Positions 2,255 to 52,555 of a DNA stretch of 64,000 nt are shown one piece after another. Position 1 is the first letter of the stretch, and each line of letters opens with the position of its first letter. A program made the translations under genes and the position numbers. The notes under the pieces are model-generated. The model did no database searches. It saw nothing but the letters and a program-made list of their open reading frames with translations, and was not told the origin of the DNA. This stretch comes from Alphaproteobacteria bacterium (GTDB lineage Bacteria > Pseudomonadota > Alphaproteobacteria > MPNO01 > UBA830), in the NCBI GenBank assembly GCA_964291215.2, contig OZ219790.1, forward strand, positions 1,344,001-1,408,000, given 5' to 3'.

Positions 2255-4155
2255 GTGCATGCTGCGGGGATGCAGATTGGTCTTCGTCATTTCGATTCGC
2301 TTGCCTGGTGCGCTGCGCTCCGACGACCCGTCACGGTCTGGCCCGCGAGCTGTGCGAGCGCACCGGTTGGCAGAATTCCTGCGGCCGGCCTGTCGGCGGC
2401 GGCGTTGCCGACGCTGGCGAAGCGCTCAGGTCTTGAGCTTCCGCTGCCGTGCGACATCCGAGCGCCGGCCCCGCCGTCCCGGCCGAAGAGGTTCCCGACA
2501 CCAGGGCAGCCTGCCCGCTGGAGGATCTCGGCCCGACCTCGCCCGGACGCCGATGATCGTCGGCTCCGGGAAGCGATGATGGCGATGCACCATCCGCCGG
2601 GATGGGCGGGCAGGTGCGCTATTGGATCCGCCGCTGCGGCGGGATCGGATCCGCGACCTGGCAGCTGCGGGCGCGGGACGAGTGGATGGTCCGCCGACGC
2701 CCGCGCCGCCAACATCAGGTGCGTGATCTGCAATCATCGGTTTCTTCCCGGCGTCCGGGTCCACGGCCTCTGCGCATGGCCGCGCAGCGGGCAGCCGACG
2801 ACCGGGAAGCTCGCGGTGCGCCCGGCGGCGGCCTGCACCCATGTCCGCCCGGAGCAGCTACTGCTATCATTGCGCCGGCCGTTGCCGGGCGAGGCCGGCA
2901 CGGTGCGGGTCCTGGCTGGCGGAAGAGGCAGGACGCAGCGGCGCCCGGTCGGCGCGCTGGCGGGCGCCTGTGACGGCACCGATGCGGACTGGGCGGAGCG
3001 GGAGTATGGGCGCACGCGCTGCAGCGACGGGCGGCGGCGCATCATTGACATGGGCGAAGAACATGGGGGAGGATCTGCCGGTCATCTTTCCGGAGAAGGC
3101 GGAGCAGAAGGCCGCCTGCCGGTTGCTGTCGAACCCGAGGATATCCATGTTCTGGAATCGCATTTCGAGGCGACCGCTGCCGGACGGAGCCTTTCATCCT
3201 TGCAGAACACGACGGCGATCAACTGCACCGGACTGACGGCGGGCCTGGAGAGGATCGGCGGCAAGGGCAGCGCCGGCATCCTTGCCGGGTTGGCAGTGAC
3301 GCCGGAGGGCCGGCCTCCGGGCCTGTTCGCGGCGGCCTTCCGGAAAGAGCCCGGGGAAGACAGCCGGCGCGGGCGGGGGAGCTCGCGGCGGCCTGCCCGG
3401 ATGTGCGTGTGGCTGCGACCGCGACTTGCTCGCCTGCGCCGTGAAGGACGGAAACGCATTGCTGGTGCGCGCGAGCCGCGAAACAGTGTGTGCGAACGGG
3501 CGGCAAAGAGTGCCTTTGGAAGCATGTCGCGGCCCGCCCGCGGTCACGGAACTGACAATCCCGGCCGCCCGCGTGCGCGCAAGGAACGCATCGCCCGCCT
3601 CGAGATCCGCACGGCGGAAGTCGAGGTGACGCCGCCGGAACCGCGGTGCGGAGCCGCTGCCCATGTTTGCCGTCTCGGCGACCGACGGCGACCCCTGGCT
3701 GCTTCTGACGACCGAGCGGCCGGCCGACGCCGTGCACGCCGCGACCGGCTGGTGAGATGGAGCATCGAGACATGGTGCTGAAAACCGGGACCCGGATCAA
3801 GGACCGCCGGCTCGACAACGCCGCCGACCTTCGCAAGTGCCTCGCCTTCGACGCGGTCACCGCCGTCCATGTCCTGACCGTCCTCGTTCGCCCCGAGACC
3901 CCGGCGACCAAAGTGTTTCAGGAAGAGGACCTCGACCTTCTCTCCACGCTGCTCGAGGCGCAGGGGCACCGGAACGTCGTGCGGTCGGGCACGGCACGAC
4001 ATCAGGGCGGCAGTCATCGACATCGGGCGCCTTGTCGGCTTTCATCCCTCGCTGAGGCAGCCGCTCCCGGGAACGAAAAAGGTCTGGCAGGGTCTTGAGC
4101 GGCTGCACTGGGCCATCCAGGTCCGAGACGCTATCGGCGAGAAAAAGCGGGAATA
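2255..4155 (+). pseudogene. Decayed DUF4338 (DruA-like) domain fused to an IS4/Tn5-type transposase
   Basis: Fragments across frames: GGQVRYWIR, ATWQLRARDEW, ANIRCVICNHRFLPGVRVHGL (DUF4338-like), then DWAEREYG, EQKAACRLLSNPRIS, QNTTAIN, LAVTPEGRP, RWSIETW, LKTGTRIKDRRLD (IS4 transposase). Confidence 0.8.
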
Positions 4156-4169
4156 GGATTGCCTATACA

Positions 4170-4462
4170 AGTGCGGGACGTTGAAAGACTACGGTCCCCC
4201 GCACTGCAGCTGCTTGCGGGTCAGTTCGGCGAACTATCGCTCGACCTGGTTGATCCAGGACGCAGAGGTTGGTGTGAAGTGGACGTGCCAGTGCGTCCGC
4301 CGCGCCAGCCAGGCTTTGACCGTCGCGGTCTTGTGGGTGGCGTAGTTGTCCATGACGATGTGGATATCCAGCCCCTCGGGGACGGAGCGGTCGATCTCCT
4401 TGAGAAACTCCCTGGCCCGGTGGCGCCGGTAGCACATGCCGATCACCGAGCCCGTGACGATA
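4170..4462 (-). pseudogene. IS630-family transposase C-terminal fragment
   Basis: YRRHRAREFLKEID...IHIVMDNYATHK...HFTPTSASWINQVER motifs. Confidence 0.85.
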
Positions 4463-4506
4463 TTGTAACGTCGCGCTGTAGTTGTTCTCCATCGGAGGCG
4501 GCATAG

Positions 4507-4746
4507 ATGGCCACTGATAACTACAATTTCGTGGGTGATCCGGAACCGAACCGATGGCGCGTTTTTGCGAGCGTGTGTGGTTGGATCGTGGCCCCGTGGT
4601 TTATGATCCTACTGTGGTTTATTGGCGGCCCTGAACTTCGAAAGAATGTAGCTGATGGTTTCCGAGTGGTGGTGGGGTTGTTGGCCTTATTGTTCGTTGT
4701 TGCGGTCATAGCGGCCCCGGGAAGTGCCGTTTTCAGCGCGCCGTGA
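4507..4746 (+). CDS. Small two-TM hypothetical membrane protein (79 aa)
   Basis: ATG preceded by ggagg, two hydrophobic segments, lower GC than its neighbours. Confidence 0.5.
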   Translation: MATDNYNFVGDPEPNRWRVFASVCGWIVAPWFMILLWFIGGPELRKNVADGFRVVVGLLALLFVVAVIAAPGSAVFSAP

Positions 4747-4892
4747 GGCGATGGACCGGCCGAAGCCCGGTCAGCCCGTACGGTCGAGAAACGCGCGCGG
4801 CGACCATATCTCGACCGGCCCGTAGCGCGGTTCCGTGAAGTCCCGCTCTCACTCCCGTATGCGCCGCAGTGAGATTCGAACTTGCCTGCATG

Positions 4893-5203
4893 ATCGGGAT
4901 AGGGTGGAGCCTCACGGCTCCACCCCTCCCACACCACCGTGCATACGGGTCCGTACACAGCGGTTCGACGGATTTAAGCTGCGGCACGGCATCGCAGGGT
5001 GGCGAGGTCGAGCCTGTCGAAGAAGGCATTGGGTAGCGCGTATGCGAGCGCGGGGCTGTTGCTGAGCCGCCATGGGCCGTGGGCACTGCCGGCGGTTTTC
5101 GCCGCTAGGTCCTTGCCCACACCGAGACGGCGTAGCGCCGCAAAGCGGGTCCGCCCGCGCTTCCACTGCATCCAGACGATGGCGCGGAGCCGCCGTCTGA
5201 CCC
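4893..5203 (-). mobile_element. 3' remnant of a class C (IIC) group II intron: maturase C-terminus plus domains V/VI
   Basis: VRRRLRAIVWMQWKRGRTRFAALRRLGV...HGPWRLSNSPAL, followed by gaaccgctgtgtacggacccgtatgcacggtggtgtgggaggggtggagccgtgaggctccaccctatcccgat. Truncated by IS256. Confidence 0.85.
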
Positions 5204-5690
5204 GATTACGCAACCTGATGTCTGGAAATTGTCGTGAAGCTGATCGAGCTGTTTCCATTTGATGTATGCCTTGGTTTCGGTTTCCCATTTTTCCTCGACG
5301 AGGACTGCGGTTGAGAGACGCTCCAACGAGGCGAGGTTCGGAAAGACCCTGACTTTGGCGGTGCGCCGCTTGAGTTCTTGCTGGATCGGTCGCTCGATGC
5401 CGTTCAAGGTTCGCATACGCTTGTGGTGAGCATCGGGCAAGGTGAAGACAGCGAGCCCCGCATTGTTTTCCAGCCAGGAAGCCTGGATGCTTGTCGCGAT
5501 AGCTGGCCACGAGGGCGCCCGGTTCAGCCTCGGCGAACTGGAGTGAGGAGGCGTGGCTCCGAGCTGTTTTCCAATACGTTTCCTGATGTCGTTGTTCGGT
5601 GCACGGCGTTTTGTGCCAGGTGGAACTGGCAGCGCTGCCACATCGCCGCGCCTAGCACCGCGCCGCTTTCAGCCCGGCATCCGAGACGAT
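5204..5690 (-). mobile_element. IS256-family remnant (transposase C-terminus and right end)
   Basis: WQRCQFHLAQNA, RMRTLNGIERPIQQELKRRTAKVRVFPN. End sequence tttccagacatcaggttgcgtaatc. Confidence 0.85.
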
Positions 5691-5756
5691 GAAGGTCGTA
5701 CCATGCAGGGCTAGCCCGAAGTTCCAGAAAATTCCGGCTGAAATGCACGTCAAGTC

Positions 5757-6665
5757 GTAACTGCTCGCCCCTGCTAATCATTGATCGCCTTTTCTGATGG
5801 CGTTCGCATCCAGGAACTCGCCGCCGATCCGGTCCTCGACGCTCTTCCGTCCCGGGAGAAGCACTGGCTCGACATCCTGCGCATGATCGCCTACCGCGCC
5901 GAAACCCGGAGGATGACGGCCGCGGCGAAGGAGCAGGGCAGGAAACCGCGCCCGCGAAGACCCCTCCGCGCCCTCCTGCAGGCCACGGTGATTCCATGCT
6001 GATTCCGAGACGCGAAATCCGAATGTGTCGGGGCTCGCGTTATCACGGATCGCCCCTTGATCGCAATTTTTCGCGCCGAGAAAGTCTCATTGAGCCTTGG
6101 CGGCACGATTGCAGCGCGACGCAGACCGAAAAATCTCGCCGGTCGCCGCTGGATTAGCGGCGTGGGATCGCCGTGGCCTGCAGGCCGACGCTGAAATCCT
6201 CTCCGAACTCGAACCGGGGTCCTCCGGGTGCGCATCCCCGGATCCGCCTGCAACGCCGGCGATGCCGCCATCGTGGGGCTGCTGAAGGAATTCAACAAAA
6301 CCGGTACCTGCGTTCTCGGAACCGAACTCCGCATGGTCTACGATCTGCCTCCGAAGCCCGCCTGAGCGGCCGCCGGAGGGCCATGGTTCTTGCCTGCCAA
6401 TTCTCCCGAGGTCAGGACATCTGAAGCTGCACTGCCGAACTCCTCAGCCGGCACGATGGAACCCGCGCCGCGGGCTCGACACCGCGTTGCTGACCCGGCG
6501 CCACCGGCCGGAAAGCAAGACCGGCCGAAGACCAGAACGGTTCTTGCCCACCGGAACCCGCACCTCCGGTTCCCGGCAATGGGCCAGGGAAGGGGACAAG
6601 AAAAGATGCTTGGCCCGAACGCCGTCAGGAACGGCAATTTATGACCAGCAGGGATGAGCAGTTAC
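5757..6665. mobile_element. Internally deleted element bounded by IS66-type terminal inverted repeats, containing a fragment of an unrelated putative transposase
   Basis: gtaactgctcgcccctgct at 5757 pairs with agcagggatgagcagttac ending at 6665. Internal LDILRMIAYRAET...LLKEFNKTGT...TELRMVYDL resembles an unclassified transposase C-terminus, ending ggtcaggacatctga (6424). Confidence 0.65.
5983..6176. mobile_element. 194-bp MITE with about 19-bp TIRs and an 8-bp target duplication
   Basis: cctgcagg at 5975-5982 and 6177-6184. TIRs are ccacggtgattccatgctg and cggcgtgggatcgccgtgg. Excision restores the reading ALLQADA. Confidence 0.8.
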
Positions 6666-6830
6666 TCAATGAGTTGAATTTGAATTACGTGATATGTCTT
6701 CATGTCGAGATCAGATGTTTTCGACCCCGTGCGCCCGTTTGTCCACTTGTGAAGGCCGGGGTGCAACCATTTCGTCAATGTTCCCTATTTGTTTTATGGG
6801 GCCGTGGAACTGTCGAGCCTGCGCAGGAGA

Positions 6831-7236
6831 TCAGGGAACGCGGCGTCCGGCCACGCCATCGGCGGGTAGGGTAAGGGGAGACGCAAACGACCTTTCCGCG
6901 CTCAAGGTAACGGCGCTGGCGCACGACGACATGGCGGATCTGCGCCACAGAATGCGCATGCCCCGAACAACCGCCAAGTGTATGTCCACCTCGCCGACGA
7001 TCTGCAGCATGGCGCTTCCAGGCGAACCGCCGCGTCCCTCAAGCAGGTCATGGGCCGTAGCGCGAGCGCCGGTTTCCTCCACCCGCGCTTCGCACCTCCC
7101 GATCACTCCCCGGCCAAGCCGCGCGGCACGAACTCGCGCCAGCCGCTGGCGGCCGCCCGCCCCGGGAGACGCGCTCCCATTCCCCGTCGGTCACCATCAC
7201 CGCGCGCTGGCGCCGCCCTTCTTCTCCGCCGCTCAT
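6831..7236 (-). pseudogene. Frameshifted small hypothetical gene, possibly ribbon-helix-helix type
   Basis: MSGGEEGRRQRAVMVTDGEWERVSR start resembles RHH/MobC-like proteins. The frame is broken downstream. Confidence 0.3.
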
Positions 7237-7385
7237 GGCCGCCAGACGACCGAAACGACAGTCACATCCGGAAACACACGGCTATCCTTTCATGACACGT
7301 AACTACTTTCCCCTTGGTTTCGGCTTGCTTTGGTCGTTATTTCCCGAGAACCTTCCCGAGCGGGCCACGGTTTCGTGACAGCGGG

Positions 7386-7418
7386 TTGACACCGCAGACC
7401 GCGCCGGCTACGTAGTTT
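7386..7418 (+). promoter_or_regulatory. Candidate sigma70 promoter of the IS-borne methyltransferase
   Basis: Perfect TTGACA at 7386, also present at the equivalent position in the related elements (45071 and about 49432 on minus). The -10 match is weak. Confidence 0.35.
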
Positions 7419-7430
7419 CGTCGCTTCAGA

Positions 7431-8081
7431 CGGGGCTTCTATTTCGGATCAAAGGCGACGAACGGTCTGTGCCAGATGCTTCTGGGCCTCCAGCCCCCGC
7501 ATTGTGCTTATGTCGAAACGCACTTGGGAGGCGGGGCTCTGATGAAGCGCAAGGCCGCTGCGGCGCGCAGCATCGGGATCGACCGCGACCGGCGTGTGCT
7601 TGACGGGTTCGAGTGCAGCTACCCTGTGGAGCTTGTTCACGGCTGCGCCCACGCGTTTCTGGCCGGCTTCCCGTTCCAGGGCGCGGACCTGGTCTACAGC
7701 GACCCATCTGCGCGCGACCCGCCGATCGCGACGGCGGTACCGCCACGACTACACCGAGGCCGACCATGTCGCTCTCCTCGACCTGCTCAAGGTCCTGCCG
7801 TGCCAGGTGATGGTCTCGGGACACCCCTCGGCGCTGTATGACGACATGCTGCGGGACTGGCGCCGGATCGCGCTTCAGGTGACGACCCGGGGCCAGGTCC
7901 GCACCGAGATGGTCTGGTTCAACTTCGCGCCCGACCGGATGCACTGGGCCGGCCATGCCGGGCGGGACAGGACCGACCGCCAGCGCATCAAGCGCAAGGC
8001 CGCCCGCTGGGCTACAAGAAGATGCCGCCGGGCGAGCGCCTCGCGGTGGTCTCTGCGATCATGGCGGCGGAGGCGGAGTGA
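7431..8081 (+). pseudogene. Dam/D12-class DNA adenine methyltransferase, frameshifted
   Basis: YFGSK, YVETHLGGGALM (SAM-binding motif I), LVYSDP (the expected DPPY is cut by a small deletion near 7705), HDYTEADHVALL, VMVSG, RTEMVWFNF. Stop overlaps the transposase start (TGATG). Confidence 0.85.
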
Positions 8082-9507
8082 TGCCAACGGTGAACGGGGC
8101 ATCGCTGCGCGCGGAACTCGATGACGCGAAGGCCCGGATCACCACGCTGCGCGCGGACGGCAAGGTGTCCGAAGAGGTCGACGCCGTGATCGGGGTCCTG
8201 CTGCCGGGCATCCTGGTGGCGGTGTTCCTCGAGAAGGCCACGCCGAAGACCTCGCGCAACTCCGGCCTCCCGCCGTCGCAGACCGCGCGGCGCGCCGGCA
8301 AAGGCTCCCGCGGCAAGGGACCGAAGGCGAGGGAGACGGCATCGGGCAACCTGCGCACGGTCACCGTCATCGGGTCCAGCCCGGTCACCGAGTGCCGGCA
8401 ATGCGGCCATGACCTGTCCGCAACCGTGTGCGCCGGACACGAGGAGCGTGTCGAGATCGACATCGTCTTCGAGACCGTCGAGCGCCGGGTCGAGGCCGAG
8501 ATCAAGGACTGCCCGCGCTGCCGCGCCCGGAACAAGGGCGCGTTCCCCGACACCATGCCGGGGCCGCTCCAGTATGGACCCGGCATCGTTGCCTGTGCCG
8601 TGCACCTGCTCTGCGCGCAGATGGTCCCGTTCAAGCGCACCGCAGCCATGATCCGGGCGATGACCGGACGGCTGCTCTCCGAGGCCACGCTTCTCGGCTT
8701 CGTCTCGCGCCTGCATCAGGCGCTGGAACCATGGGAGGCCGCCACGACCGGGAAACTCCTCGCCATGCCCGTGCTGAACGTCGACGAAACCTCGCTGCGG
8801 GTGGACGGAAAGAACCACTGGATCCACGTCTGCTCCGGCGGACCGGTCACCGTCAAGCGGCTGCACCGCAAGCGCGGATGCGAGGCCATCGACGACATCG
8901 GCATCATCCCACGCTACCCAGGCGTCATCGTCCACGACTGCTGGAACTCACCTACGCACACTGCAAGCATCAGCTGTGCGGCGCCCATCTGTTGCGCGAG
9001 CTTCAGGCCGTGACCGACAGCAACGGCTGGCCGTGGGCGCAGAGAATGCGCAGGCTTATCGCGCGCCGGCAGGTCATGCGGCGGCCGGACAGGCGCCTCT
9101 CCATGCGCCAGTACAGGCGAATCGCACGATGCTACAGGGAGATCCTGGAGCAGGGCCGAAAGGAAATGCCCGAGATCCCGAAAAGAGAAAAAGGCCGCCG
9201 GGGACCGGTCGCCAAGTCCGATGCCCACAACCTTCTCGAACGCCTCGCCGCCCAGAGACGGAACGTCCTGCGCTTCTCAAGGCGGGCCGACACACCGTTC
9301 TTCAACAATCGCGCTGAACGAGACTTCCGGATGGCCAAGGTCAAGCAGAAGGTCTCCGGCTGCTTCCGAACCATCGCCTGCGCAAACGCCTGGTGCCGCA
9401 TATCAAGCTACCTCCGGACAATGGCGGCACTCGGATACAACCCGCTCGTCACCATCAACATCGCCCTTCAGGAAAAGGCCGTTGACTGTCTCAATCAACT
9501 CGAATAA
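8081..9507 (+). pseudogene. IS66-family transposase, frameshift near 8945
   Basis: KTSRNSGLPPSQT, CxxC Zn finger, QYGPGI, LNVDETSLRVDG, VHDCW, HQLCGAHLLREL, FNNRAERDFRMAKVKQKVSGCFRT. Confidence 0.92.
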
Positions 9508-9686
9508 TATCGGGGCAAGTAGTTACCTTGGACGCTGCATTCGAGGATTGGGCGAAAAGCTTGGACGACCGGGAGTGAGCCGCCCTCCAGCATTGCCCGC
9601 CGCCACCTCTTCCTGACGCGCCGTTCTGTCCGGAACCGCCTGCGCCGAGCGGATTTCTCCGACGCTGAAGCCAGAAGGGACCCGCC

Positions 9687-10244
9687 ATGACTCTCCTCGT
9701 TGCCGGACTCGCGCTTTTCATCGTCCTGCACCTGGTTCCGAGCGTTCCCCCCCTTCGCGCTGGCCTTGTCGCCGGTATGGGAGAGAAGCGGTATCGCGGC
9801 GCGTTCTCGGGCCTCGCGCTCCTGGCCCTCGTAATGATCGTGTGGGGCTATTCGGCGGCTCCGTTCGAGCCGGTCTATTCGCCTCCGGACTGGGGGCGGC
9901 AGGCAACGATGTGGCTGGTGCCGGCGGCGTTCGTGCTGTTTGCGGCGGCCAATATGCCGACGCACATCCGGTCCGTCGTCCAGCACCCCATGCTGCTCGG
10001 GCTCCTTCTCTGGGCGCTCGCCCATCTGGCAGCGAACGGCGACCTGCGCTCGCTCATGCTCTTCGGGGGCCTGGCGGGATTCTCCGTGGCGGCGGCGGTG
10101 AGCGCCGTAGCGCGCGGCAAACGGCCCCCCGCCGACAGGAAGCCGCGCCTCGCGATGGATGCGGCGGCGCTTGCGTCGGGGCTCGTCGCCGCTGCCGTCT
10201 TCGCATATTTCCACGCCGCATTGTTCGGCGTGCCGGTGCTGTAG
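9687..10244 (+). CDS. nnrU: NnrU-family membrane protein
   Basis: LLVAGLALFIVLHL, HPMLLGLLLWALAHLAANGD motifs. Confidence 0.85.
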   Translation: MTLLVAGLALFIVLHLVPSVPPLRAGLVAGMGEKRYRGAFSGLALLALVMIVWGYSAAPFEPVYSPPDWGRQATMWLVPAAFVLFAAANMPTHIRSVVQHPMLLGLLLWALAHLAANGDLRSLMLFGGLAGFSVAAAVSAVARGKRPPADRKPRLAMDAAALASGLVAAAVFAYFHAALFGVPVL

Positions 10245-10257
10245 GGCCCTTTCCGGG

Positions 10258-10815
10258 CTACCGGCCTGCCGGGCGGGTCTCCGGGCCCGAGACGCCGGCG
10301 CCCTCGAAGGTGGCCATGTCCGCATGGCAACGGGCGGCGGCCCTGAGCAGCGCGAGCGCCAGCGCCGCGCCCGACCCTTCGCCGAGGCGCATGCCGAGAT
10401 CGAGCAGCGGCGCCTTGCCCCAGAGCGCCAGCAGCCGCCCGTGCGCCGGCTCGGCGGAGAGGTGGCCGGCCTGGCAGGGGTCGAGGCCGGAGGGGTCGAG
10501 CGCGTGGAGCACGGCCGTCGCCGCCGCCGCGCCGTAGTCGTCGAGCAGCACCGGCACGCGGCCCATGCGGGCGGCCACGAGCGCGCCGAACATGGCGGCG
10601 GTCTCGAAGCCGCCGAGGCGGCGCAGCACCTCCAGCGGCGGCCGGCCGCCATGCCGGGCGGTGCCGAGCCGCACCGTTTCGACCTTGGCTTCGAGCCGCG
10701 CACCGGAAACCCCCGTTCCGGGCCCGGTCCAGTCCTCCGCCCTGCCCCCGTGCAGCGCGTGCGCAATGGCGGCGGCCGAGGTCGTGTTGGCGATACCCAT
10801 CTCGCCGAATCCCAC
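10258..10815 (-). pseudogene. cobT: Nicotinate-nucleotide--dimethylbenzimidazole phosphoribosyltransferase, C-terminal half only
   Basis: [38 protein letters not shown]. The N-terminal half is replaced by IS66 sequence. Confidence 0.9.
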
Positions 10816-11294
10816 GCTACCCAGGCGTCATCGTCCACGACTGCTGGAACTCACCTACGCACACTGCAAGCATCAGCTGTGCGGCGCCCATCTGTTGCGC
10901 GAGCTTCAGGCCGTGACCGACAGCAACGGCTGGCCGTGGGCGCAGAGAATGCGCAGGCTTATCGCGCGCCGGCAGGTCATGCGGCGGCCGGACAGGCGCC
11001 TCTCCATGCGCCAGTACAGGCGAATCGCACGATGCTACAGGGAGATCCTGGAGCAGGGCCGAAAGGAAATGCCCGAGATCCCGAAAAGAGAAAAAGGCCG
11101 CCGGGGACCGGTCGCCAAGTCCGATGCCCACAACCTTCTCGAACGCCTCGCCGCCCAGAGACGGAACGTCCTGCGCTTCTCAAGGCGGGCCGACACACCG
11201 TTCTTCAACAATCGCGCTGAACGAGACTTCCGGATGGCCAAGGTCAAGCAGAAGGTCTCCGGCTGCTTCCGAACCATCGCCTGCGCAAACGCCT
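10809..11294 (+). repeat. 486-bp direct duplicate of IS66 transposase segment 8906-9391
   Basis: Appears identical by eye (offset 1903), including the same frameshift. Confidence 0.9.
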
Positions 11295-11701
11295 AGTGTC
11301 TTGTCATTCGTCAAATGTCGAATAAAGGCGTTTGAGTTTCACGCGGGCATCGTCGGTGGTGAACTGCCAATCCACCTTGGCCTGGATGCGGTCGCCTGCC
11401 AGGCGGCGACTTCCCGGCGTAACACCTCGATGCAGTCGATGCGGCGGTTCAGGCGGATCATGACGTTGAGTTCCACCACGTTCAGCCAACTGCCGTGCTT
11501 GGGGGTGTAGACGAACTCGAAGCGGTCCCACAGGGCCTTGGCCTCGTCCGGCGGGTAGGCCTCGTAGAGGGCGCCGGGGAGTGTTGAGATTGTCCATCAC
11601 CAGGGTGATGGTGGTGGCATCTTGGTAGCGCCCGGCGATGTCGGCCAGGAACTGCGCCCAATCGATCTTGCGCTCGGTTACCTTGGTCATGCGCTTGCCG
11701 G
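11293..11701 (-). mobile_element. IS630-family element, right-end fragment
   Basis: LVMDNLNT, YTPKHGSWLN, WQFTTDDARVKLKRLY. End ctagtgtcttgtca. Inverted copy of about 12400-12805. Confidence 0.88.
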
Positions 11702-12805
11702 CTAGTGTTATGTCAGCAATGATATGTCGTACATTTGGTGCTAGACTGTCCGTCCATTCGGGATGGAGGTCGGAGTATGAAACGCTACGTGGTGACCCTG
11801 GACGAACGGGCAGAACTTTCGGAGATCAAGGGCTCGCACCTGTCGCAAAAGGTAATCAACGCCCTGCTTAACTGCGACGAGAGCGCGTTCAATGAATGCC
11901 AGATGACCGGGAAGGTCATTGCTGAGATTCTGCGCATCAGCATGCGCAAAGTAGACCGAGTAAAGAAGCGTTTCGAGGGGCTGGAGGCGGCATTGGGTGG
12001 CCGGCGCCGTCCTACCTATATGCGAAAAGCCGACGGCGTCTTCGAGGCGCGTGGCCCTGAGTTGTGGTGAACCGCCTGAGGGTTACGCGCAATGGTCGTT
12101 GCGGCTGCTGGCCGACCGCGTTGTCGAGCTTGGTTACACCGTGTCACACGAGACGGTGCGGCGTGTTCTAAAAAAAACTGCCTCAAGCCATGGCAGCGGG
12201 TGGGTGATTCCTCCTCAAGGGAACGCCGACTTCGCCGCAGCGAAGGTGCTCGATCGCCGCCCCGCCGCCTTCCCCGTGGTCTGCATGGACGAAACGCCCC
12301 GACCGGCGAGACACGGCAACCGATCGCCATGGCGCCGGGACGGGCGTAACGACTACGAGTATCGACGTTGCGGTACCTGCAACGTCTTCACGGAACCCCT
12401 GGCCGGCAAGCGCATGACCAAGGTAACCGAGCGCAAGATCGATTGGGCGCAGTTCCTGGCCGACATCGCCGGGCGCTACCAGGACGCCACCACCATCACC
12501 CTGGTGATGGACAACCTCAACACTCCCCGGCGCCTTCTATGAGGCCTACCCGCCGGACGAGGCCTTGTGGGACCGCTTCGAGTTCGTCTACACTCCCAAG
12601 CACGGCAGTTGGCTGAACGTGGTCGAACTCAACGTCATGATCCGCCTGAACCGCCGCATCGACTGCATCGAGGTGCTACGCCGGGAAGTTGCCGCCTGGC
12701 AGGCGACCGCATCCAGGCCAAGGTGGATTGGCAGTTCACCACCGACGATGCCCGCGTGAAACTCAAACGCCTTTATCCGACATTTGACGAATGACAAGAC
12801 ACTAG
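11702..12805 (+). mobile_element. IS630-family element, full span but decayed
   Basis: Ends ctagtgttatgtca and tgacaagacactag with CTAG targets. WSLRLLADRVVEL, SHETVRRVLKK with an A9 run, VVCMDE, DYEYRRCGT, MDNLNT. Confidence 0.9.
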
Positions 12806-14042: not shown

Positions 14043-14087
14043 CTCGGCATCAGCCATGCTGCCAACAGGTATCGCCTGCCGGCGGGG

Positions 14088-42643: not shown

Positions 42644-42933
42644 GGGGCGTCTCCGCCGCCATCGTCCGGCGGCACCTCGCCCATCAGGTAGACCGAAATG
42701 ATCTCGTGGGTCACCGTGTGGCGCTCGACATTGAACCAGCGCCCGCAGCCGTGGCTATGGCACCACCGTTCGCGGTGCCGGCCTCTGGGATTGGCGCGCA
42801 TGAACAGGTAGTCGGCCCACTGCGCGTCGTCGAGAGCATCCGGGTCGGCCGGCCGCCGGATGTGGGCTTCGCCGCCACACGTGAACTCGCTCTCGTCGCG
42901 CTCGCCGCACCAGGGGCAGGAAATCAGGAGCAT
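42640..42933 (-). CDS. soxD: Sarcosine oxidase delta subunit
   Basis: CPWCGERDESEF, ERWCHSHGCGRWFN. Confidence 0.95.
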   Translation of the reverse strand: MLLISCPWCGERDESEFTCGGEAHIRRPADPDALDDAQWADYLFMRANPRGRHRERWCHSHGCGRWFNVERHTVTHEIISVYLMGEVPPDDGGGDAP

Positions 42934-42940
42934 CCCGTCC

Positions 42941-44191
42941 TCAATGAGAAACCGCGGCCGCGCCGTGCTCGTCGATCAGCCGACCGCTGTCGAACCGCTT
43001 CAGGGCGAAAGCAGCATTCAGATCGTGGGGCCGGTCCCGGGCGATGGTGTGGGCGAACACCCAGCCCGACCCCGGAGTCGCCTTGAACCCGCCGGTGCCC
43101 CAGCCGCAATTGATGTAGAGGCCCTCGACCGGGGTCTTGCCGACGATGGGACTGGCGTCCGGGCAGATGTCGACGATGCCGCCCCACTGGCGCAGCATGC
43201 GCAGCCGCGAAAAGACCGGAAACAGTTCGACCAGCGCTCCCATCTGGGCCTCGACGATCTGGAAGCTGCCGCGCTGGGAATAGGAGTTGTAGCCGTCGAT
43301 CCCGGCGCCGATGACCAGTTCGCCCTTGTCCGACTGGCTGACATAGACATGCACCGCGTTCGACATCACGACGCTGTGCAGGATAGGCTTGACCGGCTCG
43401 GACACCAGCGCCTGCAGCGCATGGCTTTCTATCGGCAACCGGAGCCCGGCCATCGCGGCAAGCACGCTCGAGTGCCCGGCCGCCACCAGGCCGATCTTTC
43501 GGGCAGCGATGTATCCGCGGGTCGTGTCGAGGCCGCGCACGCGGCCGCCGGCGACGGTGATTCCGACCACCTCGCAGTTCTGGATGATGTCGACGCCGCG
43601 GGCATCTGCCGCCCGCGCGAATCCCCATGCGACGGCGTCGTGCCGGGCGACCCCGCCGCGTTTCTGAATGGAGGCGCCGAGAATCGGGTAGCGGACATCC
43701 TGCGCGGTGTTGATGATCGGTACCGCGGCCTTGACGCCGTCTGGATCGAGCATTTCGGAATCGATGCCGTTCAGCCGGATCGCCCGGACGCGGCGGGACA
43801 TCTCTCTCAGGTCATGCTCGTTGTGCGCCAGGTTGAGTACGCCCCGCTGGCTGAGCATGATGTTGAAGTTCAACTCCCGGCTGAGGCCCTCGTACAGCCT
43901 CAGCGATTTCTCGTAGAGATGCGCGCTCTCGTCCCACAGGTAGTTCGACCTGATGATGGTGGTGTTGCGTCCCGTATTGCCGCCGCCAAGCCATCCCTTC
44001 TCCAGCACGGCGACGTTGTCGAGACCGTGCTCCCTGGCAAGGTAGTAGGCTGTCGCCAGACCGTGGCCGCCGCCACCCACGATGACCACATCGTAGGACG
44101 GGCGGGGATTCGGGCTGCGCCACGCCCGCGGCCAGTTCCGATGATAGGCAAGGGCGTTACGGGCAAGGCTGAAGATCGAATAGCGGGCCAT
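42941..44191 (-). CDS. soxB: Sarcosine oxidase beta subunit
   Basis: [43 protein letters not shown]. Confidence 0.96.
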
Positions 44192-44539
44192 GAGTCCTTC
44201 GGATAATCCACCCCTCCCCCTGATGTTCCCCGGAAGCGCACCCGGCCGGAATCCCCCGCTGCCCGGGAACAGCTGCATGTGCGGCGCACCGGACAATAGA
44301 GATACAATCCGGCTTGAGCGGATACAATCCTGCCTTCTTCACGCAGGACTATCCAACGCATCCTTGATGCAGAGAGCGAGGCTGGGCCGGCCTGCATCGG
44401 TCGGGAGTTTTCCGTTGCGTGACAGACGGTTGGGCCCGGTCTCTGGCCGCGGTTCCGCGCGCAGGGCGCGTTGTCCGTTCAAGAGCGTCGTTCCGTTCCC
44501 CCGGGACGGACGGCGCCCGAGGGAACAGATAACGGAGAC

Positions 44540-44928
44540 ACGCGCATCCATGCCCCCATCAACGAGCGGACGGTCCACCGCACCTTCAGGGAGAAGAAAC
44601 CCGGACGATACGGCCTGACCGTCATCGACAGGGACCTGCCCGCCTTCGGCTTCACCGTCGCCAGGAACGGGACCAAGACCTTCTTCGTCCGGGCCTCACG
44701 CTCCGAAGACCGTCCTCGGCACCGCCGAGGACATGACCGCCGCCGAGGCGAGGGAGAAGGCCCTTGCCGCCATCGCGGAAGCCAGGGCCGACCGCGAGAC
44801 CGGGCCGCTGTTCGCCGACTTCGTGGCCGACTTCATGCGCCGCCAGGGGCAGCGCTGGAAGCCGTCCACGAGGGCGGGCAACGCCCACCTGATCGACCGC
44901 TACCTCGTACCCTTCTTCGGCGCGATGC
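44540..44928 (+). pseudogene. Tyrosine integrase N-terminal (arm-binding) remnant
   Basis: DRDLPAFGFTVARNGTKTFFVR, MTAAEAREKA, WKPST...IDRYLVPFFG. Fused by deletion to a DUF4338 fragment. Confidence 0.7.
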
Positions 44929-46338
44929 CCGCCGCCTGGAAAATCGCCCCGCGCGACACCTTCATCGGATGGACACCCGAGCAGCGTCAGAAGAACCTGC
45001 CGCGTAACTGCTCACCCCCTGGTTCCGGCATGATGTCGGGGTAGAGCAACGAACGGGTTTTCGTGGAAATTTGACACCCGATTCGTTTAGTGGTGGTCAT
45101 CGAGAACGACGGGGACCGCCAGTGGGCTACTTTGGATCGAAGGCGACGAGCGGGCTGTGCCAGCTGCTTCCGGGGCTCCGCATGATCTGTATGTGGAAAC
45201 GCATCTCGGAGGCGGCGCGCTGATGAAGCGCAAGGCGGAGTACCGGAAGATGCCGCCGGGCGAGCGCCAGGCGATGCTCGCAACGATCATGACCGTCGAG
45301 GCCGGGTGATGGCGATGGTCAACGCGGCGTCGCTGCGCGAGGAGTTCGAAGCGACCCGGATCGCAGCGCTGCGTGCGGCCGGCAAGGTGTCGGAAGAGGC
45401 CGTGATCCGGGTCCTCCTGCTCGACATCCTCATCGTCGTCCTTCTGGAGAAGACCACGCACGAGCCGGAACTCCGGCCTGCCGCCGTCACAGACGGACAA
45501 GAGCGCGAGGCGTGCCGGGAGCAACGGCAAGGGCCCGAAGCCGAACCGGCAGATGGGCGACAACCTGCGCAAGACCATCGTCGAGGAAACGGTCGCGGCC
45601 TGCGACGCCTGCGGCGCTGACATCGACGGCCCCGTCGATCGGGAGCGCCGCGTCCTCTACGACATCGTGTTCGAGGTCGTCGAGCGCCGCGTCGAGATCA
45701 AGGAATGCCCGAAGTGCAAGGCCCGGGGCCGGTTCCCCGACAACATCCCGTGCAGTACGGCATCGGCATCCAGGCCCTCGTCATCAACCTGCTGGTCGCC
45801 CAGATGCTGTCCCTGCGCCGTCGCGCTCGTGCAGGCGATCTCCGGCATCAAGCTCTCCGAGGCCTCGGCTATGCTTTCACGATGCGTCATGGGAGGAGGC
45901 CGCCGTGGCGCACCTCCTGCAACGCCCGATGTCGACGATTTCGGATCAACAGTAAGTGGCTCCATGTCGTGGGACCCTGACGTGCAAGTTCCCGCACCGC
46001 AAGCGCGGCCGGGAGGCAAGAGATCGGCATCATCCCGTGTTACAAGGGCGTCCTGGGCCTCGTACATGGGCCAGTGTAGCCACCAGCGGCAGCCACCTGC
46101 TGCGCGAACTGACCTTTGTCGCCGAGGCTGCCGCTGGGCGCGACTGATGAAGAGCCTGCTCCCTGCCACAAGGTCAACAAGAGCGCATCCAAAACCCTGA
46201 ACGACGCCGGGCGCTACCGCACCATCAGGGCGCCAGGGAACTGCCCGACATCCCGCCGCCGCCGAAAGGAAAACGTGGACGCAAACGCGCACAACCTGCG
46301 TCTCGTGAAACACGAAAACCTGCGCTTCATAGACGACC

Positions 46339-47863
46339 ATCGCGGTAGGGAACCGGGTTACCCCCCGCACAGAACCGGACGTGCGCTGTTCGCTCCTCCC
46401 CTGACGACAAGGCGCTGGTTTGGCCACGGGCTCAGTGGGCAGCGGTGAGGGTGTCTATGTCCCCGGTGAAGTCCTTTTGGGAGCGTCGCCGAAGGGCACG
46501 CAGCTGTTTGCATTGGTGTATGAACTTCTGCAGGCTGCTTCCTGGAACGGCGTAGTAGCAGCCGTTGATAACTCACCACTTGGCCGTTTCGTGCCGGTTA
46601 TCGTGCCACCGCCTGCGCAAGGCCTCCTTGATCCGCCGCAGGGTGCCCGTTTGCGACCGACCCTGAACCTGCCTTTCCTCGTCTGTTCGCAGAAGTGCGT
46701 CATGCCGAGAAAATCGAACGTCTTGTCCACGCTTCCGGCGGTTCGCTCTGGCAAACCGACCGAACTCGATGATTTTCCGGGTGCAGTTCAAGTGGGCTAG
46801 TCTCTCCCCAAGGTCTCAGCGCCGCCCAGATGCTGAAAGCCGCACACGAAGTCGTCCGCATAATGATCGTGTCCCGCTTGCGCCAGTGGTTCTGGAACCA
46901 GTCGCACGTAGTGCAGGTTCGCAAGGCGCCGCCCCTTGCGGTGTTCCCTTGCCAGTCGGTCCCTTCCATGACGCCGGCGTCACTTGATGATCAGACCCCC
47001 CCGGAGCATCGCAACCAGATGGTCGCGGTTGTCGAAGAACCCACGGGCGTCAACGATCCAGTTGACCTTCCGCCGTTCCACCGTGACGGCGCATGATGCG
47101 CCCCGGCCGGAACCGAGGAACTCCGTTTCGCGGCACCAGAATCACACCGCCCGCTGAAGAATCTTGTCCGAGGCAAGCGGTCGTTGCCCTCCATCCTCCT
47201 TGGGTATGTAAACCCCGGAGGCGCCCGGTACGCACCCCTGTGCACACGGGCGTGCAGCAGTTCCACACCCTCCGCATACGCTTGCCACACAACGCCCCGC
47301 CGCCGCGTCCTTCCTCAAGGAATGGAACGCATCGTGCAGAGCGTCGACCGTCACGTGGTGGAGTAAAGACGCTCTTCCGGGTTCCTCTTCGCTACCTGCG
47401 TTCAGCCGCCTGTGACCCCCGCTTCTGCGCGCGGCGCGGGCCAACCGCATTGGCCTTCCCTCCAGCAACTCCGCAGGCTCCGACGAACCCTTGTTCGCCG
47501 CCTTCAACGGTACTATGGCCGAATCTGACTTCTCGTTCATCATCGGTTTACGGATTAGTTCCTTTCCTCTGCGGCCCCTCCACGACAGAGGGGCAAGACC
47601 TCCCAGGTCCCTGCTTCGGCCATGGTTCTCGGACCCCGCGGAGCCCCCGTTCGCCTCACCAACGCGGCTCGTTGCCTTCGGCCACGACCTCGGCACTCCG
47701 GTTTCAAAGCATCTCGTGGCTCAATAGCCTGGCCTGCCGCTCCCCAACGCTTCGCCTGGCGCCTCACGACGCCCGACGCATGGTTCACGGAGAAAGTGGT
47801 GGTTAGCCTCTCTTCCTGCCGGGACTTGCACCCGGCCACATTCCACCAGTTTGCCTGGCGCAC
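46339..47863 (-). mobile_element. Second copy of the group II intron, same insertion site in the IS66 transposase
   Basis: GTGCGCC start at 47863, ccctaccgcgat end at 46339. Near-identical to 496-2009. Confidence 0.9.
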
Positions 47864-47898
47864 CCGATGTCAGCTTCACCAACAATGCCGGAGAACAG

Positions 47899-49504
47899 GT
47901 ATCTACTCACCCCTTGTTGGGTTCTGATTCATAGTGCTCGTTGATGATGTCTGCGGCTTTTCCGTCGAGGGCGATCTGGGTGGCGACGAGTGGGTTGTAG
48001 CCGAGTGCGGCCATGGAGGTGAGGTAGCTTGAGCTCCGGCACCATGCTTTTGCGTGGAGCGGAAGCATCCGGACACCTTGAGCTTGACCTTTGCCATCCT
48101 GATCTTCTGTTCTCCGGCATTGTTGGTGAAGCTGACGTTGGGGTCGTCTGTGAAGCGCAGGACTGACTTTTCGTGTTTCACAAGACGTTCGTGCAGGTTG
48201 TGCGCGTCGGACTTGCGTCCACGTTTTCCTTTCGTCGGGATGTCGGGCAGTTCCCTGGCGCCCTGATGGTGCGGTAGCGCTTGCGCACGGCCCGGCGTCG
48301 TTCAGGGTCTTGGATGCGCTCTTGTTGACCTTGTGGCAGACCTCGCGGAGCAGGCTCTTCATCAGCCGCGCCCAGCGGTAGCCTCGACGACAAAGGTCAG
48401 TTCGCGCAGCAGGTGGCTACCGCACAGCTGGTGGCTACACTGGCCCATGTACGAGGCCCAGCAGTCAGGACGCCCTTGTAGCACGGGATGATGCCGATCT
48501 CTTGCCTCCCGGCCGCGCTTGCGGTGCGGGAACTTGCACGTCAGGGTCCCACGACATGAAGCCACTTACTGTTGATCCGAAATCCGGTCTCGTCGACATC
48601 GGGCGTTGCAGGAGGTGCGCCACGGCGGCCTCCTCCCATGACACGAGCGCATCGTGAAAGCATAGCTGAGGCCTCGGAGAGCTTGATGCCGGAGATCGCC
48701 TGCACGAACGCGACGGCACGGCGCAGGGACAGCATTTGGGCAACCAGCAGGTTGATGACGAGGGCCTGAATGCCGATGCCGTACTGCACGGGATGTTGTC
48801 GGGGAACCGGCCCTTGGTCCGGGCCTTGCACTTCGGGCATTCCTTGATCTCGGCGCGGCGCTCGACGACCTCGAACACGATGTCGTAGAGGACGCGGCGC
48901 TCCCGATCGACGGGGTCGACGCCGTCGATGTCGGCGCCGCAGGCGTCGCAGGCCGCGACCGTTTCCTCGACGATGGTCTTGCGCAGGTTGTCGCCCATCT
49001 GCCGGTTCGGCTTCGGGCCCTTGCCGTTGCTTCCGGCACGCTCTCGTCCTTGTCCGTCTGTGACGGCGGCAGACCGGAGTTCCGGCTCGTTTTGCGCGTG
49101 GTCTTCTCCAGAAGGACGACGATGATGATGTCGAGCAGGATGACGAGGACGCGGATGACGGCCTCTTCCGCCACCTTGCCGGCCGCACGCAGCGCCGCGA
49201 TCCGGGTCTTGGCCGCTTCGAACTCCTCGCGCGCCGCGTTGACCGTCGCCATCACCCGGCCTTGCGCTTCATCAGCGCGCCGCCTCCGAGATGCGTTTCC
49301 ACATACAGATCATGCGGAGGCTGGAGCCCCGGAAGCAGCTGGCACAGCCCGCTCGTCGCCTTCGATCCAAAGTAGCCCACTGGCGGTCCCCGTCGTTCTC
49401 GATGACCACCACTAAGCGAATCGGCATGCAGTGTCAAATCTCCACGAAAACCCGTTCGCTGCTCTGCCCCGACATCAAGCGGGAATCAGGGGGTGAGCAG
49501 TTAC
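47899..49504 (-). mobile_element. Intron-free sister IS66 inserted in inverted orientation
   Basis: TIRs at 47899 (gtatctactcacccc) and 49504 (ggggtgagcagttac). 8-bp TSD gagaacag (47891-47898, 49505-49512). Confidence 0.92.
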
Positions 49505-50079
49505 GAGAACAGAAAATCAGGATGGCAAAGGTCAAGGTGTCCGGATGCTTCCGCTCCACGCAAAAGCATGGTGCCAAGCTACCTCACCTCCATGGCCGCA
49601 CTCGGCTACAATCATCACGTCGCAACCCAGATCGCCCTCGACGGAAAAGCCGCAGACATCATCAACGAGCACTACGGCCAATCAGAACCCAACTAGGGGT
49701 GAGTAGATACCCTGCCGCTGGTGGTCGATAACCCGGGATTCCTCATCATGCCCTGGCTTTCCGTCGCGAACCCTGGGTCCCGCATCCTCGCCATCATGCG
49801 ACGCCGACTGCCCGATGACTGGACCAGACGTTACAACATCACCCCGGTCCTCATCGAGACCTTCGTCCAGACACCGCGCTACACCGAAGCCGTCTACAAG
49901 GCCTCAGGATGGATCCGTGTCGGAACCAAGAAAGGACGAGGCCGCTACGCACAAGAAATTCGACAAGCCAAAAAAAGACATCTGGCTGAGGCCTCTGCGC
50001 AAGTACTGGAAATGCATCCTCAACCGGTGAAAATCGCCCGCAATCACCTCGTGACCGAACGCTTACGTGCAGCGGGTGC

Positions 50080-52555
50080 GTAAGCGTTCGTTCGTGCGGT
50101 GATGACGATCTGCGCTGAGGTTTGTTTTGGTGATTCGGAGAAGGGGGCTGGTAAATTTTTTTTGACGGTGCCATCAGGTCGTGCATGGTCATGTGCATCG
50201 AGGATTTCGTGTCATCATCGGGGGCGGACGCCGCTGGCGATGTGCCGCAGTCGTCATATCGTGATTCGGCCACCTGGAAGTCCCTGTACGATCGCGAGCG
50301 TATTCGAGCCAAGGCTGCGGAAGCCCGCACGGCGGTTGCGGATGCCCGCACGAAGGCTGCGGAGGGTCGCTGTGAGGAGCTGCGCTTGCAGGAGGTGGAG
50401 GGGCGCAGCCGCGCGAATTCCCTGAAGGCGATTTTCGAGAGCAATCGCGAGAAGCTGGCAGCTGCCCGTGCGGAGGTCAGGGAAGTTCGGCGGACGGCGA
50501 AGCAGTTTCTTGCGCTGAAGCAGGAGGTTGCACGTCCGGGCAGGCTTCTTGCCGAGGCCGGCGCGCGGAAGCGGTCGACGGTGGTGTCGCTGCGCATGGA
50601 GAATGCCGGCCTGAAGACCGCGATGAGGGTTCTGAAGGGTCGGGGCGCTCGAGGCGGAGAACGACAAGCTTCACAGGTCGTCGATGTACGGGCGCAAGAG
50701 CGAGAAGAGGCAGCGGGCGCCATCGAAGTGCGGCCAGCAGTGCGGCACTCTTGGCCGCGGCCGGCGCTCGAGGAGGTGGAGGAGCGGCTGGAAGTGGCGG
50801 AGGACGCGCGCTCGTGCTGCGGCACGCTGCCAACGGTTTGCACCAGGATCATCGAGATCAGGGCGCACAAGCGGCGGATTGTCCGCCCGCGCCGGGGCTG
50901 TGACTGCCCCGGTTCACCGAGCGAGGTGGCGGCGCGGCTGTTTCCCGGCACCGCATTCGGGTGTGGACGCATGTGCTGCACGAGCGCGTGCATGCGGCCC
51001 TTGCGCCGCGCCGCCCGACCAGGGGCTTTCGCCGGGAACGCCGGCCAGCTCCACGAGCCGGATGCTGCCCCTGTTCGAGCCGCTTCGGGACGCGATCCTC
51101 GCGCACCGGAACGAGGCGAGTCTGCGCCATGCCGATGCATCCGGGCCCTGAGGGAGGTCCGGAAGTCGCGCCGCGCCTGCTCTGGACGTCGGTCAGCCGT
51201 GACGCGGTCCTCTTCCACCCCTCGCGCAGCACCGAGGTCGCGGCGAAGCTGTTCGCGGACGCCGTCGGCCCCATGTATCCGGTCTGCGACCGCTACGGCG
51301 CCTGCAAGAAGCTGGCGCGCCTGTGGCCCTTCATCATCCTGTGCTGTTGCCGGGCGCATTGTCGGCGCGACTTTCCGGACTGCGCCGGCCGCAGCTGGAG
51401 GGGTGGGCGGACGAATGGATCGATCGCGGAGATCTGCCGCCTGAACACGGCTCGACTGCCTTGCTTCCGGCGGCCGGTCGGCGGCGGCGTTCGAGGCCGC
51501 GCAGGCGGCGCCGGAGACTGCGGTCGCCGCGCTGTTTGCGGCAGCGCCAGCTGGAGAGGCTTCCGAAAGCGGCGCCGGAAGGCAGGCCGCTGCGCTCAAC
51601 CATCGCGCAGGCGTGTTCGTCGACCATGGACAACAATTTCGGGGAAAGGGCTGTCAGGGGCCCGGCCAACGGGCGGAAGCCCGGCTTCGGTTCCGACAGC
51701 ATGGACGGCGTGCGGCTGTCATGTACACGGTCCTGTTCACGGTCGCGAGGAGCGGCCTCGACGTTCTGCGCTGGCTTGATGCCTGCGCGGAGAACGGCGG
51801 CCCGGCGATCTGTCGCCCTGGTTGCCGTGGCCCGGAGAGGCGGCGGAGATTCGCGGCGCCGCCGTGAGCGGCGAGGTCGAGTGCCGCTGCCACGGGCGCG
51901 ACTTCATGATCGCGCAGATGCGGCTGCTGCGCGAACTGACGATCACGGAGTGGACCCCATCGCCCGCGCCTTCTGCCGCCGCCGGCCCCGAAGCTGATCA
52001 CGTCGGACACCGAGCCGCCGCCCCGAAGACCCTCAACGAGCTCCGCCCGCTGACACTACCTCGAATACACGCGCCTGGTCGACCCGCAGATGCGCTACGC
52101 GGTCCATGACCGGAACGGCGAGCCGCTGCTCGGCTTCTCGACCGCCGCATGGAGCGCGCACTGCAACACCACGCCCGTGCTTTGCGAGATCTTGGTCGAG
52201 GTCCCGCACCGCGGCGTCTGCCGGCCGCGTCGGAACAACCAGGGGCGCGGCCGCTACGACCGACATGACAGGGTCGACAAGTCGAAGAAGGACATCTGGC
52301 CCGCTCCGCAAGGACTGGAAGCGGACCCTCAATCGCTGAACCCTGCAACCGGCACAGGATGGTGCTCAGCTCCTCCTCCGCAGCGCCGGGACAAAACCGC
52401 AACCAATGCGGAAAACACGGCATGGCGCCAGTGCCTGCCAACCTCACCGCGCATCCCGGTGCACGAAACCGCTCCGGATGACGCTGGAACTCCCTGACAA
52501 AGGCCCGTCAAACGGACGAAAACAACAACACCTCACCCCACGAACGAACGCTTAC
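50080..52555 (+). mobile_element. Decayed IS66-family element: transposase followed by a DUF4338 gene
   Basis: TIRs gtaagcgttcgttcgtgcggtga and tcaccccacgaacgaacgcttac (22/23). YGRKSEK, VCDRYGA, AHCRRDF, DNNFGERAVRGP, then QMRYAVHDRNG...FSTAAW...GRGRYDRH...KKDIW. Confidence 0.85.

Follow-up and report, generated by a model that had tools for sequence, protein, structure and literature searches.

The window analysed in this study, a 64,000-nucleotide stretch of an alphaproteobacterial genome (G000:C1:1344001-1408000), contains three copies of a DruA-like gene (DUF4338; Pfam PF14236), every one of which is broken. We give an even chance to the explanation that these fragments are what is left of dead copies of an accessory module conserved on insertion sequences (IS), predicted to be a GNAT related to the Mom protein of phage Mu and likely to acylate or aminoacylate adenine in DNA, for protection of the element during its spread. 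Insertion sequences are thought to carry little besides a transposase. The module described here is a widespread IS accessory and apparently unstudied; the interest lies in the family, the window copies being dead. An earlier reading of the letters of the window (the original prediction) had claimed three DUF4338-like remnants carried as passengers by different transposase families, and all three were recovered by tblastn (Table 1).

Linkage and retention of the DruA-like gene in IS66 elements

A scan of GTDB with the stand-alone DruA-like protein gave 533 confirmed places. Linkage was counted in the best 79 of these 533 loci, which come mostly from metagenome-assembled genomes of Alphaproteobacteria, with two from Bryobacterales. 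The transposase gene tnpC lies directly upstream of the DruA-like gene in all 79 gene-led loci, with an ATGA overlap in 77. Comparison of copies within one genome delimited two-gene IS66 elements of 3.2-3.8 kb. Terminal inverted repeats (TIRs) together with an 8-bp target duplication were present in 39 of the 79 loci and TIRs alone in 24, while no TIR pair was found in 16; the 39 target duplications displayed no clear site preference. TnpC scored 258 bits with the IS66 model NF033517 (cut-off 180 bits), and one element of 3,208 bp is fully taken up by open reading frames (ORFs) of 721 and 293 amino acids (aa), tnpA and tnpB being absent with no room for them.

Canonical IS66 elements consist of tnpA, tnpB and tnpC, and those of the ISBst12 group of a single gene. 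The carrier elements share with the family a TnpC above the cut-off, TIRs mostly beginning with GTA, and the 8-bp duplication, but they differ in having two genes, one for a TnpC of 720-890 aa with a long N-terminal extension and the downstream DruA-like gene; in other clades the latter is located upstream or is fused.

A search led by the transposase gave the same linkage. Among 77 metagenome loci, for TnpC relatives of at least 44% identity the gene was located downstream in all 48 cases that could be assessed, seven more being truncated or without room. Among 30 genome loci, 28 had the gene and two were truncated, which makes 28 of 28 assessable genome loci and 76 of 76 with the metagenomes included, counts that include repeated copies and were obtained with a query alignment built from linked elements. 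At 37-38% identity the gene was absent downstream in four of four metagenome loci, and below 36% identity it was downstream in none of 18, of which 14 showed a DruA-like match at another position of that strand.

Over 136 pairs drawn from 17 elements, the DruA-like gene had a median ratio of nonsynonymous to synonymous substitution rates (dN/dS) of 0.21, compared with 0.46 for tnpC (last 330 codons), and the DruA-like gene is thus retained under purifying selection in the IS66 clade. The term passenger, used in the original prediction, understates the association, since no loss of the gene was found within the IS66 clade and fusions to the transposase are frequent. The higher median identity of the module (86%, compared with 70% for TnpC) was rejected as an indication of better conservation, because loci chosen by similarity to the module bias this comparison.

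Carrier families and distribution

The stand-alone protein search gave 7,333 matches among 7,999 scored candidates, and 8,042 representatives were obtained at 50% clustering. Among the best 120 long relatives, 119 contain a Pfam domain of IS66 (57) or IS4 (62) transposases. Five carrier families were identified by NCBIfam, namely IS66, IS4, ISAs1, ISKra4 and IS1634. The module is encoded upstream or downstream of the IS66 transposase or fused to it, is fused in two groups of IS4 and in ISAs1, and is an adjacent gene in ISKra4 and IS1634. The IS4 (IS50/Tn5-like) and ISAs1 carriers share with their families scores above the NCBIfam cut-offs (NF033590 and NF033564, respectively) and defined ends, common to many copies, and differ by an additional N-terminal DruA-like module of 200-310 aa. 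At three DruA-ISAs1 loci (L119, L121 and L134) the transposase is encoded in two overlapping frames split near the same point, a pattern that would result from a programmed frameshift.

When 300 other genomes were sampled evenly from the phylum, PF14236 was found in 19, of which 16 had the IS type and four a distant large type, one genome having both. A transposase was adjacent or fused in 11 of the 16 IS-type positives, and the other five were fragments or lay at contig ends. With the IS type in 16 of the 19 positive genomes, Pfam-based 'Druantia DruA' labels in IS-rich genomes will often be false defence calls.

In the genome of the window, PF14236 matched at 44 places, 34 of them above the cut-off, and at none in 14 control genomes. 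A tblastn census detected 227 DruA-like fragment clusters in 6.15 Mb, which do not equal copy numbers and whose typing is partly circular because the census queries were taken from such elements. An ISAs1 transposase is directly downstream in 74 of 107 ISAs1-type clusters, an IS4 transposase is downstream in 44 of 71 IS4-type clusters, and an IS66 tnpC is upstream in 19 of 49 stand-alone-type clusters; despite the partly circular typing, the transposase arrangement was seen again at many separate sites of the genome. Near-intact examples include stand-alone genes of ~293 aa (L001-L004), an IS4 fusion (L008; 280 bits, cut-off 160) and two ISAs1 fusions (L010, 91 bits, and L013, 103 bits; cut-off 70), and intact copies match PF14236 with 74-130 bits (E 1e-20 to 1e-37).

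A quick tree of 75 GNAT domains clustered them by carrier and arrangement, with the IS4 fusions unresolved and the DruA-type row unplaced on a very long branch. This tree, which was built from hand-chosen rows with no clade test, would fit repeated capture and subsequent co-inheritance, but supports no donor or order of events. No match to the IS-type module was found in 50,697 phage records, nor in viral contigs searched with the IS4 fusion, and two of 72,556 plasmids had a match. Relatives, mostly of 85-95% identity, are present in four RNA libraries as contigs, which cannot show transcription.

Predicted fold and relationship to Mom

In an AlphaFold2 model built from an alignment of 57 sequences (pLDDT 93.6), a small helical part at the N terminus is followed by a proline-rich linker and then by the GNAT domain (residues ~105-292). 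Since the ISAs1 fusions and the IS1634-linked protein are without the N-terminal module, the GNAT domain is the conserved core. Residues 1-48 of the N-terminal module, folded without an alignment, gave an uninformative best Z of 4.9. Among 48,161 solved chains, Mu Mom (8bv8) was the first match to the model (Z 14.3, root-mean-square deviation 3.5, 165 residues aligned), followed by ordinary GNATs (Z 12.4). Structure prediction thus agrees with the GNAT/Mom-like fold that had been suggested from the letters alone, Mu Mom being the nearest solved relative. In a viral structure library, a named Mom was seventh, below unnamed or uncharacterised proteins.

Profile comparisons also pointed to Mom. 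The Mom-like family phrog_1384 was matched by 50 of the 57 members and any other PHROG by at most one. For 74 non-redundant members set against an alignment of 15 Mom sequences, hhalign gave 96-97.5%; in the controls, six-sequence Mom subsets gave 85-96% and six ordinary GNATs 0.5%. The Pfam Mom family (PF25680, cut-off 27.1 bits) was approached but not reached, with a best score of 26.1 bits (E 6.7e-6; L114) and scores of 21.5-22 bits for two ISAs1 fusions. The copies of the window's own genome gave no match to PF25680, and searches of the solved-structure sequences with one protein and with a profile gave nothing at E ≤ 10.

Residues H132, R194 and S208 do not vary among the 62 proteins compared, which cover every architecture, and Y133 (58 proteins), D/E238 (60), R/K241 (59) and Y247 (61) are conserved in the same set. 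According to hhalign, H132 is predicted to correspond to H58 of Mom, Y133 to Y59, S208 to S124, D/E238 to D149, R/K241 to R151 (with a one-residue gap) and Y247 to Y159. The chemistry of Mom is described in PMC13219725, the accessible portion of which names H58, Y59, R111, S124, D149, R151 and Y159 as active-site residues and reports that a helix-turn-helix (HTH)-like insert (175-209), predicted to be the DNA-binding part, is essential for activity.

Mu Mom (PDB 8bv8) is a Gly-tRNA-dependent N6-adenine DNA modifier. The IS module shares with it the predicted GNAT fold, profile-level homology, counterparts of the active-site residues H58, Y59, S124, D149, R151 and Y159 and probably of R111, and a location on a transposable element, as Mu is one. 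It differs by the lack of the HTH-like insert, by an extra inter-strand insert (AAWK.APRD..IGW), by a usual N-terminal part of ~100 residues, by scores below the Pfam Mom cut-off, and by its location on insertion sequences, where it is fused or coupled to transposases. By the cut-off and the HTH insert the IS module falls outside the Mom family, but it most plausibly works like Mom. In the Microbacterium phage Dropshot (OR475279.1, L191), a tRNA-Gly gene adjoins a mom-like gene, which fits the use of Gly-tRNA by Mom.

Several observations weigh against this relationship and against the function proposed from it. Foldseek placed Mom ninth among GNATs that were near ties (E 2.4e-5), although its query TM-score of 0.40 was the highest listed. 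Mu Mom alone gave 1.5-2.4% in hhalign, and the alignment of ordinary GNATs mixes subfamilies and is thus a weak control. The putative match of R194 with R111 of Mom is based on spacing (14 residues before S208, compared with 13 in Mom); hhalign set the R194 strand in another register, with R194 at the end of the matching strand. A short basic loop (GRGRxDR) takes the place of the HTH-like insert of Mom, and according to the same portion of PMC13219725 Mom's substrate and co-substrate were not predictable from its structure. The linkage counts hold many near-identical copies, largely of one habitat-linked clade.

Proposed function and alternative explanations

Judged by the gene layout, the module is probably co-expressed with the transposase, either as a fusion (IS4, ISAs1 and some IS66) or from an adjacent gene (IS66, with the ATGA overlap, ISKra4 and IS1634). 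Being produced along with the transposase, it would work chiefly on DNA at the element or close to it, where it would transfer an acyl or aminoacyl group onto adenine; the donor may be a charged tRNA, as Gly-tRNA is in Mom. Such a mark would most probably protect the element, along with its carrier DNA, against restriction upon entry into a new host, and it could also limit the re-use of element ends. Because the IS lineage never loses the gene while the host lets copies decay, the module should help the element itself, and since the known benefit of Mom is escape from restriction, protection during spread is favoured.

Mobile elements carrying genes for DNA modification are known, such as insertion sequences with methylase passengers and fungal KDZ transposons with TET/JBP. 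As in these, a base-modifying enzyme, here a predicted one, would be aboard the element, but the enzyme class is different, and one module is found across five IS families and is often fused. A conserved, apparently catalytic module that five IS families have in common and that is under purifying selection points to a so far unknown function in the spread or control of insertion sequences. If DNA modification is correct, this large family would provide candidate base-modifying enzymes that are naturally fused to sequence-specific transposases.

A bolder version of this proposal, possible but doubtful in our judgement, is that at least five unrelated IS families each recruited a Mom-related enzyme that would place a bulky adenine mark from a charged tRNA on their own DNA, as a general and so far unstudied epigenetic layer of transposition in bacteria, tethered to the transposase, and that the related DruA would write the self-mark seen with Druantia type I. 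A PacBio 'm6A' adenine signal at CAGCTGNC is gained by cells carrying this system, one component of which is the distant relative DruA, according to excerpts of bioRxiv 10.1101/2024.04.14.589459, and types I and II are said to contain methyltransferase modules in the accessible portion of bioRxiv 10.64898/2026.05.12.722862. The first five bases of CAGCTGNC fit the Mom consensus SASNY, and the signal is indirect evidence for DNA modification by the module. If the module modifies DNA, its family is also a testable candidate for this mark. A fit to SASNY is expected by chance in about one case in eight, the signal was called m6A, and the excerpts of the former preprint do not name the writer gene. 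In addition, the sole PADLOC-type DruA examined (L197) is without the HY motif, which the IS type keeps, and gave 0.3% with Mom in hhalign.

Among the rival explanations, the best supported, which we regard as distinctly less probable than the proposed DNA modification, is that the module is an active acyltransferase on protein or tRNA, for instance on the transposase encoded with it or on some host factor, and tunes transposition. The GNATs just below Mom, within ~2 Z units, are mostly acetyltransferases of proteins or small molecules, fusion or coupling to a transposase would suit a partner protein, and the DNA-binding insert of Mom is absent. The DndF-fused DUF4338 was also grouped with protein-targeting effectors in the accessible portion of PMC10853773. 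The sequence kinship is specific to Mom and not to ordinary GNATs, however, and the five unrelated transposase families have a DNA substrate in common and no obvious protein target.

Somewhat less probable again is that the enzyme marks DNA solely as a step or switch of transposition, on the ends or intermediates of its own element, with no role against restriction. Dam methylation is known to gate the transposition of IS10 and IS50. The constant presence of the gene in the IS66 clade, the compact 3,208-bp element, and a Dam-like methylase gene on a second IS66 type of the same genome are consistent with such a switch. Most IS4, ISAs1 and IS66 elements function without such a gene, however, and the IS66 transposases of 37-38% identity have no downstream copy in four of four loci; moreover, the TIRs of the carrying families display no common motif on inspection.

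We consider it improbable that the module is cargo for anti-phage defence, in which case a stand-alone DruA would travel on insertion sequences to the benefit of the host. The module shares its Pfam family with Druantia DruA, DUF4338 proteins of larger size are found in defence contexts (L198, with a PADLOC E of 1e-291, and L200, which also matches SspF), and one PADLOC-type druA directly follows tniQ. But the PADLOC DruA models (PDLC00001/2) match the IS type weakly (best E 5.6e-7 overall and 9.7e-6 in the genome of the window, compared with 4.5e-80 for the DruA-type protein of another genome), and in-frame fusions to transposases, as well as decay along with transposases at more than 200 places in the genome, argue against selection at the level of the host. 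Slightly less probable still is that the module, though derived from a Mom-like enzyme, is without catalysis and serves as an accessory factor that binds nucleic acid. The basic composition (49 K+R and 31 D+E), the extra helical N-terminal module of most forms and the missing essential insert of Mom would suit this reading, but the polar nature of the invariant residues at Mom catalytic positions and the retention of the GNAT part alone in the ISAs1 fusions argue against it.

Comparison with Druantia, the defence locus and earlier literature

The IS module is an IS accessory and not a Druantia system, as had been predicted: in Druantia type I, druA shares an operon with the large DruE helicase (DUF1998/MZB), whereas here, in addition to the linkage to TnpC and the low PADLOC scores, MZB has a single match in the genome, in a 646-aa frame on the other contig, and no DruE-like helicase is located near the module. 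Druantia type I DruA shares with it the Pfam family PF14236 and the region of the RD motif, but is 400-700 aa long, while the IS type is a protein of 293 aa or a transposase fusion. Druantia genes druA to druE are listed in excerpts of PMC7251935. Genes for druB, druC or druD were not found among the six defence-locus ORFs scanned with PADLOC; no genome-wide search was made for them. The PADLOC-type druA after tniQ (L197, G319:C1:2600223-2604245) indicates that a defence-type gene can sit in a Tn7-like element.

The neighbours of the remnants are transposases and, at 52590-63952 on the minus strand, a defence locus in which Menshen nsnA/B/C have an HmaC-like ATPase on one side and, on the other, a DUF1156 methylase together with a PLD/SNF2 helicase (an Hma-like set). 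The claim that no other Druantia genes are visible agrees with this composition. A defence locus adjoining the remnants had been predicted and is present, but a functional link of the module to it was rejected, being supported by adjacency alone; with 227 clusters in 6.15 Mb, such adjacency is expected by chance.

DUF4338 is already in print as a GNAT fused to DndF (PMC10853773, accessible portion), DruA-like folds have been noted in cyanophages (excerpts of the Phold preprint), and fusions of Mom to nucleases are described in the accessible portion of PMC7824862. The main text of PMC13219725, in its accessible portion, makes no mention of transposases or DruA, and PMC13639185 and PMC12458937 contained nothing relevant. 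Our literature search found no paper tying DUF4338/DruA to transposases (zero whole-word hits for DruA plus transposase); the Mom-like surveys of Iyer et al. (2009, 2013) may describe the link.

The broken copies in the window

The remnants were located by six-frame translation, Pfam searches (curated cut-off of PF14236, 27 bits) and tblastn, for which intact relatives of the window's own genome served as queries (Table 1).

Table 1. Features of the three broken DruA-like genes and their carrier elements (window coordinates).
Feature	Position	Strand	Evidence
Eroded IS4-family element	2250..4186	+	blastn against three other full-length genome copies, all with identical end base
Remnant 1, DruA-like module (N-terminal helical part + GNAT), frameshifted, N-terminal to IS4 transposase	2264..2946	+	tblastn E 1.9e-31 with L007; Pfam E 0.022
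IS4/IS50-like transposase remnant	2960..4150	+	profile of 25 IS4 fusion proteins, independent E (iE) 7.2e-8 at 3760-3954
Remnant 3, 5' piece (AAWKIAPRDTFIGW motif)	44913..45003	+	tblastn E 2e-8; Pfam E 1.5e-4
8-bp target duplication CCTGCCGC, left copy	44996..45003	+	sequence
Later insertion splitting remnant 3, with eroded and nested copies of the methylase-type IS66 plus a group II intron-like remnant	45004..49710	.	TIR positions, repeats, translations
8-bp target duplication CCTGCCGC, right copy	49711..49718	+	sequence
Remnant 3, 3' piece of DruA-like gene	49711..50027	+	Pfam PF14236 E 5e-10, above cut-off; tblastn E 1e-35
IS66-type right TIR of element 3	50041..50066	+	reverse complement starts GTAAGCGTTCG, as in element 2
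Element 2, eroded two-gene IS66 element, 26-bp imperfect TIRs	50080..52555	+	TIR pair (50080, 52555); 12 or more further long copies elsewhere in genome
IS66 TnpC remnant, frameshifted	50185..51860	+	Pfam PF03050 E 3.8e-8
Remnant 2, stand-alone DruA-like gene directly 3' of tnpC, many deletions	51855..52336	+	tblastn E 8e-23 with L001; profile iE 9.9e-7

Assignment to DUF4338 by profile holds directly for one remnant of three. The 3' piece of remnant 3 matches PF14236 over 49709-49987 with 39.5 bits, while remnant 2 gave no Pfam match and remnant 1 a weak one, so that these two were assigned through close intact relatives; the relative used for remnant 1 (L007) itself matches PF14236 with E 9.4e-25.

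The IS4-family element retains its right end (~4160-4186), and its left TIR is gone where an IS66 end abuts at 2249. The fusion claimed for remnant 1 is supported by the gene order and by intact fused relatives (L008), but is not visible in the window copy, whose reading frame is too eroded. Its start is near 2264 and not near 2580, since the N-terminal module belongs to the remnant. In four of six inspected copies of this IS4 family (window 2235-2275; G000:C2:264804, C2:849798 and C1:2478933), the left end adjoins one end of the methylase-type IS66, which suggests a preferred target or a shared composite ancestor.

The two pieces of remnant 3 belong to a single gene, and the 4.7-kb insertion between them has the 8-bp duplication CCTGCCGC on both sides; the transposase and the remaining 5' part are lost, and an IS66-type end follows, as had been noted. 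Remnant 2 was correctly described as lying after an IS66 transposase and inside TIRs. No target duplication was found for the window copy of element 2, and an exact one is kept in one of ten inspected copies of its family, suggesting much rearrangement between copies.

The 13 copies of the element-2 family, including that of the window, differ from their majority by 726 substitutions, 217 deletion events and 41 insertions. Deletions of 5-7 bp account for 107 of the 217, consistent with erosion by many short deletions. The 43 distinct deletions of at least 4 bp have a mean microhomology of 2.3 bp (0.86 bp at random, with a maximum of 1.33 in 500 draws), and 26 of the 43 are common to at least two copies. 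The host genes of the window are intact, unlike the eroded IS copies.

The methylase-carrying IS66 type of the original prediction was also found. It has a gene for a ~230-aa Dam-like adenine methylase before tnpC (TIGR00571 E 1.7e-5, a weak match below the cut-off) and is present in at least ten near-identical copies; it was noted at window positions 7440-9530 and 45004-49710 and at G000:C1:141635-143728 (L209). Two eroded genes resembling group II intron reverse transcriptases, at ~440-1960 and 46330-47830, gave no Pfam match and were recognized from repeats; both are located inside IS66 copies.

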